Shown: positions 17,786 through 28,480, counted from the first letter of the stretch. The stretch is 29,734 bases of DNA from a virus (IMGVR_UViG_2850756110_000009), one strand, 5' to 3'. The notes: generated by a model not told the origin, from the sequence alone. A program made the numbers and translations.

Positions 17786-17793
17786 GCATCAGC
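17786..17793. repeat. 8-bp target-site duplication GCATCAGC of IS66 copy 2 (partner at 20235-20242)
   Basis: Identical octamers directly abut both IS ends. Confidence 0.9.
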
Positions 17794-17830
17794 GTAAGCG
17801 TGCAGCAAGAACCGTATTGACGGGGATGTG

Positions 17831-19369
17831 TTATTCAGTCGGCAGTGCTACGCGCCAGGGGAGCAGTTCGCCGACCCGGTTTATCGGCCAGTCGGCTATG
17901 ACGTCAAGTACATAGCGGAGGTAGCTTTCTGGCTCCACTCCGTTCAGTTTGCACGTCCCGATCAGGCTGTACAGCAGCGCTCCCCGCTCTCCTCCATGAT
18001 CCGAACCGAAGAACAGGTAGTTTTTGCGGCCCAGACTGACCATCCGCAACGCATTTTCAGCGATGTTATTGTCCGCCTCAGCCCAGCCATCATCTGCATA
18101 GTACGTCAGCGCCGGCCACTGGTTCAGGGCGTATGCGAACGCTTTCGCCAGTTCTGAGTGTCGCGACAGGGTTTTCATCTTTTCACGCAGCCAGCTTTCC
18201 AGGGATTTCAGCAGCGGTTTCGTTTTCAACTGACGTTCGGCAAGGCGCTGCTCCGCCGTCATTCCCCTTATCTCTGCCTCGATGGCGTACAGTTCGCCGA
18301 TCCGTTTCAGCGCTTCCTCCGTCAGGGCTGACGGGGTGCGAACGTGCACATCGTGGATTTTACGGCGGGCGTGAGCCCAACAGGCGGCTTCCGTTATCCG
18401 GCCATCCCGGTACAGCTCGTTGAACCCGGCGTATGCATCCGCCTGCAGTACACCACTGAACCCCGCAAGATGGGTCTGCGGATGGATGCCTTTTCTGTCC
18501 GGGCTGTAAGCGAACCACACCGCCGGCGCCAGCGTTGACCCGGCGTTACGGTCGTCACGAACGTAGGTCCATAACCGCCCGGTCTTCGTTTTCTTATTGC
18601 CTGGCAACAGCACCGGGACAGGCGTGTCATCAGCATGGAGCTTACCGTCAGTCAGCACATAATCCTGAAGCGCTTCTTCCAGCGGTGACAGTAGCCGGCA
18701 GCATGCATCCACCCAGCCCGACAGCAGTGAACGACTCAGCTCCACGCCCTGGCGGCCGTACATTTCAGACTGACGGTACAGCGGGGTGTGCTCTGCATAC
18801 TTTGAGATCAGCACGCGGGCCAGCAGCCCCGGTCCTGCGATACCCCGCTCGATGGGCCGTGAAGGCGCGGGGGCCTGCACGATGGCATCGCACTGAGTAC
18901 AGGCATGCTTTTCACGTACAGTCCGGATAACCCGGAAGACGCTGCGCATCAACTCCAGCTGTTCGGCGGCATCCTCACCCGGATAGCTCAGTGAGCCTCC
19001 ACATTCCGGGCAGCATGACGCTGCCGGCAGCAGCCGTTTTTCATCGCGGGGGAGTGATTCGGGGAACGGTTTGCGGGTGCGGGTTTGACGCAGCGGGCGC
19101 TGCACGGCCGGGTCGTCAACCCGACCGGTAAGGGTATCACTTTCTTTCTGAAGTGCCTTCAGGTCAGCTTCCATCTGTGCGATACGACGGGAGACTTTTT
19201 CGGAGCGGCTGCCGAAGTTCATCCGGCGCAGCTTATCCAGCTGTGCCTGCAGATGGTCTATTTCGCGTTCACGCTCGTTCAGCTTTTCCAGCAGGGCACG
19301 GTTCAGCGCCTCCTGTTCGGCAAGGAGACGTTTCAGTGCATTGATATCGTCAGGAAGTGAGCTGCTCAT
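17831..19369 (-). CDS. IS66-family transposase TnpC (copy 2)
   Basis: 512-aa protein identical to the copy 1 orfC product. Confidence 0.9.
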
Positions 19370-19417
19370 ACCGGGTATATTACCAGGCTCATTCAGCGTC
19401 GACCAGGATAAAGAGGC

Positions 19418-19765
19418 TTACAACATAGTCAGGGACGTAAGCAGTCTTTTAGGCTGCCGCCAGTCGATACCTTCAAGGAGCATCGCCAGCTGTGCCGGTG
19501 TGAGGAACACTTTGCCATCCCGGGCTGACGGCCAGGCGAAGCGGCCGCGCTCCAGCCGTTTGGTCAGCAGACACAGTCCATCGCCGGTAGACCAGAGGAG
19601 CTTTACCTGACTGCCATTACGCCCACGGAAGATAAAAACGTGACCTGACATCGGATCGTCTTTCAGCGTCGTCTGCACCTTTGCCGCCAGGCCGTTGAAG
19701 CCATTTCTCATATCGGTGATACCGGCAACCAGCCAAATTTTGGTCCCGGAAGGTAACGGGATCAT
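19418..19765 (-). CDS. IS66-family TnpB (copy 2)
   Basis: Identical 115-aa product to copy 1. Confidence 0.85.
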   Translation of the reverse strand: MIPLPSGTKIWLVAGITDMRNGFNGLAAKVQTTLKDDPMSGHVFIFRGRNGSQVKLLWSTGDGLCLLTKRLERGRFAWPSARDGKVFLTPAQLAMLLEGIDWRQPKRLLTSLTML

Positions 19766-20163
19766 CGCTTCAGTTCCTGTATCAGCAGAGTCAGGAGCTT
19801 TTCGCTGACATTGCCATTGAAGCGGAGCGTCCCGTGCCGGAACGTTACCTCACAGCTGATACTGAGGGTTTCCGGATCCTCTGCGAGCGATTCTGGCTGT
19901 TCGGCAGCTGCATCGAGAGTCACAGGAAGTAGCTGGGGGCTCTCTGAAGAAGGTAATAGCAGCTTTCCCTCGCGCCATTGTTGTCGCCATTTGAACAACA
20001 GATTGGCGTTAATGCCATTTTCAAGAGCAAGTTTTGAGATGGATATCCCGGGTTCACAGGAGGCAGCAACGAGCTGCTGTTTAAATTCGGGAGGATAATT
20101 AGGGCAGCCTTTTCGCCTGCCGGGATTCACATTTTTCTGCATATCTGACACTTTGGTTCCCAC
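19762..20163 (-). CDS. IS66-family TnpA (copy 2)
   Basis: Identical 133-aa product to copy 1. Confidence 0.8.
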   Translation of the reverse strand: MGTKVSDMQKNVNPGRRKGCPNYPPEFKQQLVAASCEPGISISKLALENGINANLLFKWRQQWREGKLLLPSSESPQLLPVTLDAAAEQPESLAEDPETLSISCEVTFRHGTLRFNGNVSEKLLTLLIQELKR

Positions 20164-26031: not shown

Positions 26032-26068
26032 GTAAGCGTGCAGCAAGAACCGTATTGACGGGGATGTG

Positions 26069-27607
26069 TTATTCAGTCGGCAGTGCTACGCGCCAGGGGA
26101 GCAGTTCGCCGACCCGGTTTATCGGCCAGTCGGCTATGACGTCAAGTACATAGCGGAGGTAGCTTTCTGGCTCCACTCCGTTCAGTTTGCACGTCCCGAT
26201 CAGGCTGTACAGCAGCGCTCCCCGCTCTCCTCCATGATCCGAACCGAAGAACAGGTAGTTTTTGCGGCCCAGACTGACCATCCGCAACGCATTTTCAGCG
26301 ATGTTATTGTCCGCCTCAGCCCAGCCATCATCAGCATAGTACGTCAGCGCCGGCCACTGGTTCAGGGCGTATGCGAACGCTTTCGCCAGTTCTGAGTGTC
26401 GCGACAGGGTTTTCATCTTTTCACGCAGCCAGCTTTCCAGGGATTTCAGCAGCGGTTTCGTTTTCAACTGACGTTCGGCAAGGCGCTGCTCCGCCGTCAT
26501 TCCCCTTATCTCTGCCTCGATGGCGTACAGTTCGCCGATCCGTTTCAGCGCTTCCTCCGTCAGGGCTGACGGGGTGCGAACGTGCACATCGTGGATTTTA
26601 CGGCGGGCGTGAGCCCAACAGGCGGCTTCCGTTATCCGGCCATCCCGGTACAGCTCGTTGAACCCGGCGTATGCATCCGCCTGCAGTACACCACTGAACC
26701 CCGCAAGATGGGTCTGCGGATGGATGCCTTTTCTGTCCGGGCTGTAAGCGAACCACACCGCCGGCGCCAGCGTTGACCCGGCGTTACGGTCGTCACGAAC
26801 GTAGGTCCATAACCGCCCGGTCTTCGTTTTCTTATTGCCTGGCAACAGCACCGGGACAGGCGTGTCATCAGCATGGAGCTTACCGTCAGTCAGCACATAG
26901 TCCTGAAGCGCTTCTTCCAGCGGTGACAGTAGCCGGCAGCATGCATCCACCCAGCCCGACAGCAGTGAACGACTCAGCTCCACGCCCTGGCGGCCGTACA
27001 TTTCAGACTGGCGGTACAGCGGGGTGTGCTCTGCATACTTTGAGATCAGCACGCGGGCCAGCAGCCCCGGTCCTGCGATACCCCGCTCGATGGGCCGTGA
27101 AGGCGCGGGGGCCTGCACGATGGCATCGCACTGAGTACAGGCATGCTTTTCACGTACAGTCCGGATAACCCGGAAGACGCTGCGCATCAACTCCAGCTGT
27201 TCGGCGGCATCCTCACCCGGATAGCTCAGTGAGCCTCCACATTCCGGGCAGCATGACGCTGCCGGCAGCAGCCGTTTTTCATCGCGGGGGAGTGATTCGG
27301 GGAACGGTTTGCGGGTGCGGGTTTGACGCAGCGGGCGCTGCACGGCCGGGTCGTCAACCCGACCGGTAAGGGTATCACTTTCTTTCTGAAGTGCCTTCAG
27401 GTCAGCTTCCATCTGTGCGATACGACGGGAGACTTTTTCGGAGCGGCTGCCGAAGTTCATCCGGCGCAGCTTATCCAGCTGTGCCTGCAGATGGTCTATT
27501 TCGCGTTCACGCTCGTTCAGCTTTTCCAGCAGGGCACGGTTCAGCGCCTCCTGTTCGGCAAGGAGACGTTTCAGTGCATTGATATCGTCAGGAAGTGAGC
27601 TGCTCAT
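26069..27607 (-). CDS. IS66-family transposase TnpC (copy 3)
   Basis: 512-aa protein identical to the other copies. Confidence 0.9.
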
Positions 27608-27655
27608 ACCGGGTATATTACCAGGCTCATTCAGCGTCGACCAGGATAAAGAGGC

Positions 27656-28003
27656 TTACAACATAGTCAGGGACGTAAGCAGTCTTTTAGGCTGCCGCCA
27701 GTCGATACCTTCAAGGAGCATCGCCAGCTGTGCCGGTGTGAGGAACACTTTGCCATCCCGGGCTGACGGCCAGGCGAAGCGGCCGCGCTCCAGCCGTTTG
27801 GTCAGCAGACACAGTCCATCGCCGGTAGACCAGAGGAGCTTTACCTGACTGCCATTACGCCCACGGAAGATAAAAACGTGACCTGACATCGGATCGTCTT
27901 TCAGCGTCGTCTGCACCTTTGCCGCCAGGCCGTTGAAGCCATTTCTCATATCGGTGATACCGGCAACCAGCCAAATTTTGGTCCCGGAAGGTAACGGGAT
28001 CAT
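27656..28003 (-). CDS. IS66-family TnpB (copy 3)
   Basis: Identical 115-aa product. Confidence 0.85.
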   Translation of the reverse strand: MIPLPSGTKIWLVAGITDMRNGFNGLAAKVQTTLKDDPMSGHVFIFRGRNGSQVKLLWSTGDGLCLLTKRLERGRFAWPSARDGKVFLTPAQLAMLLEGIDWRQPKRLLTSLTML

Positions 28004-28401
28004 CGCTTCAGTTCCTGTATCAGCAGAGTCAGGAGCTTTTCGCTGACATTGCCATTGAAGCGGAGCGTCCCGTGCCGGAACGTTACCTCACAGCTGATAC
28101 TGAGGGTTTCCGGATCCTCTGCGAGCGATTCTGGCTGTTCGGCAGCTGCATCGAGAGTCACAGGAAGTAGCTGGGGGCTCTCTGAAGAAGGTAATAGCAG
28201 CTTTCCCTCGCGCCATTGTTGTCGCCATTTGAACAACAGATTGGCGTTAATGCCATTTTCAAGAGCAAGTTTTGAGATGGATATCCCGGGTTCACAGGAG
28301 GCAGCAACGAGCTGCTGTTTAAATTCGGGAGGATAATTAGGGCAGCCTTTTCGCCTGCCGGGATTCACATTTTTCTGCATATCTGACACTTTGGTTCCCA
28401 C
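28000..28401 (-). CDS. IS66-family TnpA (copy 3)
   Basis: Identical 133-aa product. Confidence 0.8.
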   Translation of the reverse strand: MGTKVSDMQKNVNPGRRKGCPNYPPEFKQQLVAASCEPGISISKLALENGINANLLFKWRQQWREGKLLLPSSESPQLLPVTLDAAAEQPESLAEDPETLSISCEVTFRHGTLRFNGNVSEKLLTLLIQELKR

Positions 28402-28480
28402 TACTTATTTGGTGGACACCACTTTGTCTAATTCGTCAGATTCTGACCAGACGGTTCAGGCTGTACGCTTACGCAAAATC

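Follow-up and report, generated by a model that had tools for sequence, protein, structure and literature searches.

Copies of an IS66-family insertion sequence as substrates of recombination at an ipaH-linked prophage locus of Shigella dysenteriae

Three near-identical copies of an insertion sequence (IS) of the IS66 family, apparently of the ISEc22 type, interrupt the 29,734-bp stretch of DNA analyzed here (IMGVR_UViG_2850756110_000009; "the window" denotes this whole stretch), and comparison of their flanks with those in related chromosomes shows that they are actual, and not merely potential, substrates of recombination. The window corresponds to Shigella dysenteriae CP026805.1:4296634-4326367 (L012; 100.000% identical over 19,517 bp) and, judged by its sequence, is a decayed, ipaH-carrying remnant of an E217-like myovirus prophage located between zitB and pgl. 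Copy 2 (c2) is an un-recombined, simple insertion in the tail-sheath gene of this prophage, and copies 1 and 3 (c1 and c3) are chimeras that join flanks from three insertion sites. Taken as a whole, the locus very probably records independent insertions followed by recombination between the copies, which shaped c1 and c3. The original prediction on this DNA had proposed the copies as recombination substrates, and hybrid copies with swapped flanks in related S. dysenteriae chromosomes bear this out.

Throughout, the flanks are named for their insertion sites: A is the DUF4376 gene, B the zitB-ybgS spacer and C a site inside IS1, and 2-L and 2-R denote the flanks on the sheath-N and sheath-C side of c2, respectively. 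A repeat search and base-by-base comparison gave three full-length copies of 2,441 bp:

559-2999, + strand: c1, with chimeric flanks, B-left (zitB) and A-right (DUF4376 N-terminal part)
17794-20234, - strand: c2, un-recombined simple insertion in the sheath gene
26032-28472, - strand: c3, also chimeric, with the left flank of site A (DUF4376 C-terminal part, ipaH) and the right flank of site C (IS1 fragment)

In the repeat search the arm 559-3007 was inverted relative to both 17786-20234 and 26032-28472, which were mutually direct; this is the geometry first described for the window, in which c2 and c3 enclose 20235-26031 as direct repeats and c1 is inverted relative to both. The copies differ at only three positions (in c1 coordinates, 2020 and 2131, private to c2, and 2698, private to c3), all of them synonymous third-codon changes in tnpC, and the TnpA, TnpB and TnpC translations are identical in all three. 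Repeats of 2.4 kb at 99.9% identity cannot be chance. The near-identity, intact proteins and synonymous-only differences noted in the original prediction thus held when the three copies were compared in full (3 differing positions in 2,441 bp).

The assignment to the IS66 family, confirmed with Pfam, is based on several features of the element, whose open reading frames (ORFs) in c1 are as follows:

630/651-1031, + strand: tnpA
1028-1375, + strand: tnpB
1424-2962, + strand: tnpC

This is the consecutive tnpA-tnpB-tnpC layout of the family, with an ATGA overlap of tnpA and tnpB at 1028-1031, and the products measure 133 amino acids (aa) from GTG or 126 aa from ATG (TnpA), 115 aa (TnpB) and 512 aa (TnpC). 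Pfam matched TnpA to HTH_Tnp_1, TnpB to TnpB_IS66, and TnpC to LZ_Tnp_IS66, zf-IS66, DDE_Tnp_IS66 and DDE_Tnp_IS66_C; the profile match to PF03050 (DDE_Tnp_IS66; E = 7e-107) spans profile positions 1-283 of 284 and identifies the IS66-type domain. The ends are imperfect terminal inverted repeats starting GTAAGCGT, with the 5'-GTAA typical of IS66, and the left end (GTAAGCGTACAGCCTGAACCGT) and the reverse complement of the right end (GTAAGCGTGCAGCAAGAACCGT) agree at 19 of the first 22 bases. The 8-bp target-site duplication of the family is found at c2, at site A in CP026842 and in the junction halves of site B, and at the empty sites in the sheath and DUF4376 genes the overlap between the flanks is exactly 8 bp. 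Escherichia coli copies that RefSeq labels "IS66-like element ISEc22 family" are 99.8% identical to the element, and copies on S. dysenteriae virulence plasmids, where it occupies up to six places per plasmid, are 100% identical. The RefSeq labels of these near-identical copies point to an ISEc22-type member of the IS66 family.

The simplest of the three insertions is c2, which divides the tail-sheath gene into two parts:

16652-17793, - strand: tail-sheath C-terminal part (DUF3383 / E217_gp31), ending at c2
20235-20583, - strand: tail-sheath N-terminal part (PF11863, E217_gp31_N); the ORF called at 20218-20583 terminates within the IS

On the + strand, GCATCAGC stands at 17786-17793 and again at 20235-20242 (in IS orientation, GCTGATGC left and GCTGATGC right), so that c2 carries identical direct duplications, and its flanks are contiguous in an uninterrupted homolog. 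In enteroinvasive E. coli (EIEC) RMDEC364 (L003) the site is empty and the DUF3383/E217_gp31 sheath gene is intact, encoding 494 aa; both c2 flanks map onto this gene and overlap by exactly the 8-bp duplication. Because the overlap in the intact gene is clean, c2 is a simple insertion, as had been claimed from the GCATCAGC repeat on its two sides. The start originally assigned to it, 17786, is the first base of the target duplication, while the IS itself begins at 17794. The further claim that c2 is recent fared less well. All 13 related chromosomes that were examined at this position carry the insertion between the same flanking sequences (intact in 12; in CP026840 only its sheath-N junction was seen), although these chromosomes differ among themselves by several rearrangements, and the copy in the window carries two private single-nucleotide polymorphisms (SNPs). 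In the assembly collection 153 blocks list a sheath-N::IS fusion ORF, and a look-up of this junction-spanning ORF led to S. dysenteriae chromosomes. The c2 junction was found in 0 of 5,426 complete E. coli genomes, which argues that the insertion is specific to this Shigella lineage. We conclude that c2 is un-recombined, but not demonstrably recent.

The flanks of c1 and c3 are of a different kind, and the features that define them are these:

551-558, + strand: one copy of the site-B target duplication ACTTAACT, in the zitB-ybgS spacer
2996-3415, - strand: DUF4376 tail gene, N-terminal part, which reaches into c1 at the right IS end (the Pfam hit, DUF4376, falls short of the curated cut-off)
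3000-3007: first copy of the site-A duplication, GATTTTGC, adjoining the right end of c1
25905-26031, - strand: 127-bp end of an IS1 that c3 cuts (site C), with GTCTCAGA at 26024-26031 (TCTGAGAC when read in the orientation of the IS)
28473-28688, + strand: C-terminal part of the DUF4376 gene, with the second site-A copy, GCAAAATC, at 28473-28480

For c1, in which the + strand is also the IS orientation, the left flank is ACTTAACT and the right flank GATTTTGC. For c3 the + strand reads GTCTCAGA on the left and GCAAAATC on the right, the latter being the reverse complement of GATTTTGC, and in IS orientation the flanks are GATTTTGC left and TCTGAGAC right. In neither copy do the two flanking 8-mers match, so neither is a simple insertion. 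The right flank of c1 nevertheless belongs together with that on the left of c3. In EIEC VL40 the N-terminal part of the DUF4376 gene maps to L001 12008-10776, and window segments 3000-4232 and 28473-29734 map to adjacent DNA in opposite orientations with an 8-bp overlap (L001 12001-12008). Since these flanks are halves of one DUF4376 gene and carry the same 8 bp, they derive from one site-A insertion that has been split by recombination, and the segment between c1 and c3 is inverted relative to zitB and ipaH. The outer flanks trace to two further sites. At site B, ACTTAACT is also found at the ybgS-side junction in CP026807, CP026823, CP026832, CP026840, PSSQ01 and PSST01. At site C, loci L008, L010 and L011 have an intact IS1 with no ISEc22, and in L008 and L011 the intact sequence reads ...CTGAA/TCTGAGAC/AACATC....

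Copies 1 and 3 are, therefore, chimeras from three insertion sites, A, B and C. The inversion between them that was read from the window holds insofar as they share the halves of one duplication and of one split DUF4376 gene; it is not a simple two-copy inversion. The latter is rejected because the outer flanks, ACTTAACT at zitB and TCTGAGAC inside IS1, are unmatched, so that three sites and at least two events are needed, namely an inversion and then, most probably, a 22-kb deletion. An exact-pattern scan of GTDB species representatives, a collection without Shigella chromosomes, gave no zitB/IS junction, and the c1-left junction was absent from the 5,426 complete E. coli genomes, likewise a collection without Shigella chromosomes. 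A DUF4376-N::IS ORF is on record in a 137-aa form and not in the 139-aa form.

A population survey, covering every ISEc22-type copy in 24 loci of 14 chromosomes, with each flank classified over 40 bp (every match 40/40), revealed at least five arrangements among sequenced relatives, and not the single fixed form that would have spoken against active exchange:

CP026842: A-L/IS/A-R, with GATTTTGC on both sides; an unrearranged insertion, inverted relative to c2 and 17.2 kb away from it
CP026832: B-L/IS/A-R and A-L/IS/B-R, with ACTTAACT at both B junctions; a reciprocal exchange, the inverted copies being 47.1 kb apart
CP026807 and CP026823: A-L/IS/B-R and D-L/IS/C-R; in CP026807 these are direct repeats, 22,298 bp start to start
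CP026805 (the window) and UYIT01: B-L/IS/A-R and A-L/IS/C-R; the arrangement of the window
CP026840: 2-L/IS/A-R and A-L/IS/B-R; includes the sheath-N/IS/DUF4376-N junction
CP026828 (L028 7533-9973): A-L/IS/2-R, joining DUF4376-C, IS and sheath-C

For the inversion, both the reciprocal exchange of flanks (CP026832) and the un-exchanged state (CP026842) are thus preserved. The junction in CP026840 is the one expected from the inversion between c1 and c2 that the original prediction had foreseen. The CP026828 junction is ambiguous, being either a product of the deletion between c2 and c3 that the original prediction had also foreseen, with loss of 20235-26031, or of inversion between an unrearranged A copy and c2. 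Site D, the left flank of the D-L/IS/C-R copy found in four sister chromosomes, is ATAAAAAC, which lies within a second, different IS66-family element (L006 1-1905, CP026807); this second element is uninterrupted in CP026842 (L013 640-2544). The flanks of the D-L/IS/C-R copy are also unmatched, and it is either another recombinant or the result of an adjacent deletion.

On the reading we favor, independent transpositions would have placed copies at A, at B, in the sheath gene and at C, each with an 8-bp duplication; for three of these sites, A, B and the sheath gene, the duplication is shown. Homologous, presumably RecA-dependent, exchange between the inverted copies at A and B would then have inverted about 47 kb, comprising ybgS-aroG-gpmA-gal-mod and most of the prophage. 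A second exchange, between the resulting A-L/IS/B-R copy and a direct copy at C, would have deleted about 22 kb, extending from ybgS to modF and beyond and including lambdoid remnants, and would have left c3. The same substrates led to other outcomes in sister lineages, among them the 14.8-kb inversion of the tail module between c1 and c2. Homologous recombination between identical 2.4-kb copies is the most likely mechanism, given the end products and established knowledge, and it fits because the same few junction halves are reshuffled into at least five combinations.

The deletion step can be followed in the sister genomes. Its parental direct repeats are present in CP026807 and CP026823, and in CP026807 the interval between them holds, in inverted orientation, ybgS, aroG, gpmA, galMKTE and modF, among others; at the CP026805 locus, within the ~46 kb of chromosome inspected, no ybgS-aroG-gpmA-gal-mod segment lies between zitB and pgl. 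Recombination of the two CP026807 copies would give exactly c3 and would shorten the interval from c1 to c3 to the observed 23,032 bp. It is conceivable, though unlikely, that c3 arose instead by inversion or translocation with a distant ISEc22 copy, and that ybgS-gal-mod survives elsewhere in the chromosome. Several further copies do exist on Shigella chromosomes and on pINV plasmids, and the part of CP026805 inspected amounts to ~46 kb. However, CP026807 and CP026823 carry both parental junctions within one stretch of DNA as direct repeats separated by 22.3 kb, and the c1-c3 interval equals the CP026807 interval minus precisely that segment, so that a single deletion suffices.

The chimeric junctions could also have been produced in single steps by the transposase, through intramolecular replicative transposition, a pathway known for IS1, IS26 and Tn3-type elements and discussed in PMC5001619. 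Here, an IS at site B would attack the DUF4376 gene, giving an inversion with duplication of the IS, and later an IS end would attack IS1, giving an adjacent deletion. The end products would be the same, with one 8-bp target copy at each inverted IS and a new flank without duplication, and neither c3 nor the D-L/IS/C-R copies have matching duplications. We consider this route improbable, however, for four reasons. The plain A-L/IS/A-R insertion of CP026842, with GATTTTGC on both sides, is the precursor expected for the two-step route. One and the same C-right junction is paired with A-L in some copies and with D-L in others, for which transposition would need to hit the same nucleotide twice, or would require homologous recombination anyway. 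The occurrence of the same few junction halves in at least five flank combinations is the signature of recombination and not of new target attacks. Finally, in the literature searched we found no replicative cointegrate pathway for IS66-family elements.

That the junctions are assembly artefacts, in which identical 2.4-kb repeats were joined to the wrong flanks, is scarcely credible: the copies are indeed 99.9% identical and longer than short reads, and the 29.7 kb of assembly holds at least ten homopolymer insertion-deletion (indel) errors, but the independent assembly UYIT01000003.1 has the same order and orientation of parts across the entire window (all 29,734 bp colinear, 99.96% identity), copy-specific SNPs are resolved, and the arrangements of the other strains are internally consistent and reciprocal. 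Homopolymer indels, moreover, are typical of long-read assemblies, and such reads span 2.4 kb. Relative to UYIT01000003.1 the window has ten single-base deletions, every one within a C or G homopolymer (positions 40, 5929, 10119, 14524, 15017, 16987, 17242, 21728, 22726 and 24385), which explain the split ORFs of the zitB, tail-fiber, sheath-initiator, tape-measure and sheath-C genes. These are probably long-read assembly errors rather than true pseudogenes. The split genes of the window thus come mostly from homopolymer errors and should not be taken as pseudogenes.

Several points weigh against our reconstruction. It is from end products only that a RecA-dependent pathway is deduced. The ybgS-gal-mod segment may have been deleted from CP026805 or moved elsewhere in it, the inspected region being ~46 kb. 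The order of events is a parsimony reconstruction, and because inversions are reversible, CP026842 could be a revertant and not the ancestral form. The D-L/IS/C-R copy, the other bearer of the site-C junction, has unmatched flanks as well. Some of the SNPs behind the argument for gene conversion given below, including the substitutions in c3, could be artefacts of repeat polishing in assemblies that have homopolymer indel errors. Lastly, at 2,441 bp the element is shorter than the 2,454 bp given for ISEc22 (PMC5001619), and it is either an ISEc22 isoform or a close relative.

Exchange between the copies may not be confined to events that rearrange their flanks. An alignment of 28 IS copies has 29 variable columns, several of which are single-base gaps resembling sequencing errors. 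At IS position 579 (A/C), copies are concordant within the genome in 9 of the 11 genomes for which two or more copies were sampled; such co-variation within genomes, at insertion sites that are orthologous from one genome to the next, calls for at least one transfer from copy to copy. Position 1573 (T) is a marker of c2 and is present in both kinds of c2 hybrid (CP026840 and CP026828), a pattern that fits crossovers on either side of that position. Across 29.7 kb the window and UYIT01000003.1 differ by just two substitutions, at 26333 and 27894, and both lie inside c3; the chance that both fall there is ~0.007, and that both fall in any of the three copies ~0.06. Together, these sequence patterns suggest ongoing gene conversion between copies in the genome.

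It is tempting to speculate that the locus between zitB and pgl, with its ipaH prophage, has been a hotspot of recurrent recombination within one lineage of S. dysenteriae, in which four to five ISEc22 copies have generated at least five structural forms and the CP026805/UYIT01 sub-lineage lost ~20 kb (aroG, gpmA, galETKM and mod) by a single IS×IS deletion; we regard this wider proposal as evenly poised. If it is true, the ~20-kb loss would be a concrete, datable step in the metabolic reduction of Shigella, and the two pairs that remain, c1/c2 and c2/c3, may still cause inversions or deletions in cultures. Confirmation of the 22-kb loss would tie the loss of gal, mod, aroG and gpmA to one IS×IS event. 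In any case, the three copies account for the difficulty of assembling the region and for the differences in gene order among closely related S. dysenteriae genomes.

The gene order in CP026805 is tolB-pal-nadA-pnuC-zitB, c1, the tail module, c2, the neck genes with IS911 and the IS1 end, c3, and then DUF4376-C, ipaH, pgl and ybhD. The remaining features of the window are as follows:

1-525, - strand: 5' part of zitB (CDF-family zinc exporter; Pfam Cation_efflux), chromosomal backbone left of c1
3000-17793, - strand: tail module of an E217-like myovirus prophage (tail fibers, baseplate, tape measure, tube and C-terminal part of the sheath), between inverted copies c1 and c2
7047-8377, + strand: IS2, in the DUF2612 wedge gene, with a 5-bp duplication, CTGAT
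15714-16481, + strand: complete IS1 of 768 bp, with an 8-bp duplication, GACAGTTT, between the tube and tape-measure chaperone genes
20235-22838, - strand: neck and tail-terminator genes of the same prophage
22843-23361: partial IS911, inverted
within 22843-25566: lambdoid fragment (class II holin; four tRNA genes at 23875-24185), bracketed by the two IS911 sequences
24319-25566: complete IS911
28868-29734, - strand: 3' part of ipaH, a chromosomal type III effector gene (NEL domain)

The zitB part is 99.5% identical to E. coli zitB in all 5,426 genomes, and its apparent frameshift at 40 is one of the homopolymer deletions relative to UYIT01000003.1. The prophage is colinear with the intact prophage of EIEC RMDEC364, and its Pfam names include E217_gp27, gp28, gp31 (sheath), gp32 (tube) and GP41, together with an SLT tape measure, a sheath initiator and a wedge protein. 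Two tail-fiber segments, 4233-4373 and 5623-6196, have no megablast match, or only a 94% match, to EIEC prophages that are otherwise 98-99% identical, which looks like mosaic tail-fiber variation. The IS2 insertion is not shared with EIEC VL40, in which IS2 lies in a tail-fiber gene and not in DUF2612; because the sites differ, the two insertions are independent. The four tRNA genes, the only hits of an Rfam scan, are Gly-TCC, Thr-TGT, Arg-TCT and one with a CAT anticodon (Ile according to RefSeq). The partial IS911 measures ~520 bp in the window versus ~730 bp in CP026807-type genomes. Between the complete IS911 and the IS1 end, 25567-25904 is a 338-bp AT-rich stretch, across which a 147-aa ORF with no Pfam hit was called. 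Two further repeats proved not to be special: I3, with inverted arms of 459 bp, is IS911 sequence, and I4 (16350-16481 and 25905-26036) is IS1 sequence.

Among known systems, the element itself most resembles ISEc22 and the other IS66 elements of Enterobacteriaceae (IS679, ISEc8 and ISCro1), with which it shares the tnpA-tnpB-tnpC order and ATGA overlap, the zinc-finger, DDE_Tnp_IS66 and C-terminal domains of TnpC, ends starting GTAAGCG, and 8-bp target duplications, the difference from ISEc22 being the length noted above. Two other systems have an outward likeness to the locus. As in a composite transposon, a unique segment lies between two identical IS copies (direct for c2 and c3, inverted for c1 and c2), but neither pair has a matching outer duplication (GCTGATGC/GATTTTGC for c2/c3 and ACTTAACT/GCTGATGC for c1/c2), and each junction half traces to a separate insertion site, so that neither pair was inserted as a unit. 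As in the Gin, Cin and Pin systems of tail-fiber inversion, a phage tail segment occurs in both orientations among related genomes; a programmed switch is rejected here, since the window has no invertase gene and the exchange points fall inside 2.4-kb IS copies instead of short crossover sites, and the genes in the inverted segment are disrupted already. In EIEC VL40 there is a pinE pseudogene, beyond ipaH.

Within Shigella itself, rearrangement of this kind is well documented: insertion sequences have mediated inversions, deletions and the decay of prophages, also in the neighborhood of chromosomal ipaH genes (PMC7373316; PMC8072062). The type of event reported here is thus already known, in Shigella it is textbook, and the element is already catalogued. 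In the surveyed cases, as at this locus, multi-copy IS elements serve as portable homology that leads to inversions, deletions, metabolic gene loss and prophage decay. Those surveys center on IS1, IS2, IS4, IS600, IS911 and, in S. dysenteriae type 1, ISEc8, whereas in the present case the element is of the ISEc22 type, the S. dysenteriae lineage is a different one, and sister genomes preserve the intermediates. The locus is, therefore, a well-resolved example of a known process, because the ancestor, an intermediate and alternative products all survive among the sequenced relatives.

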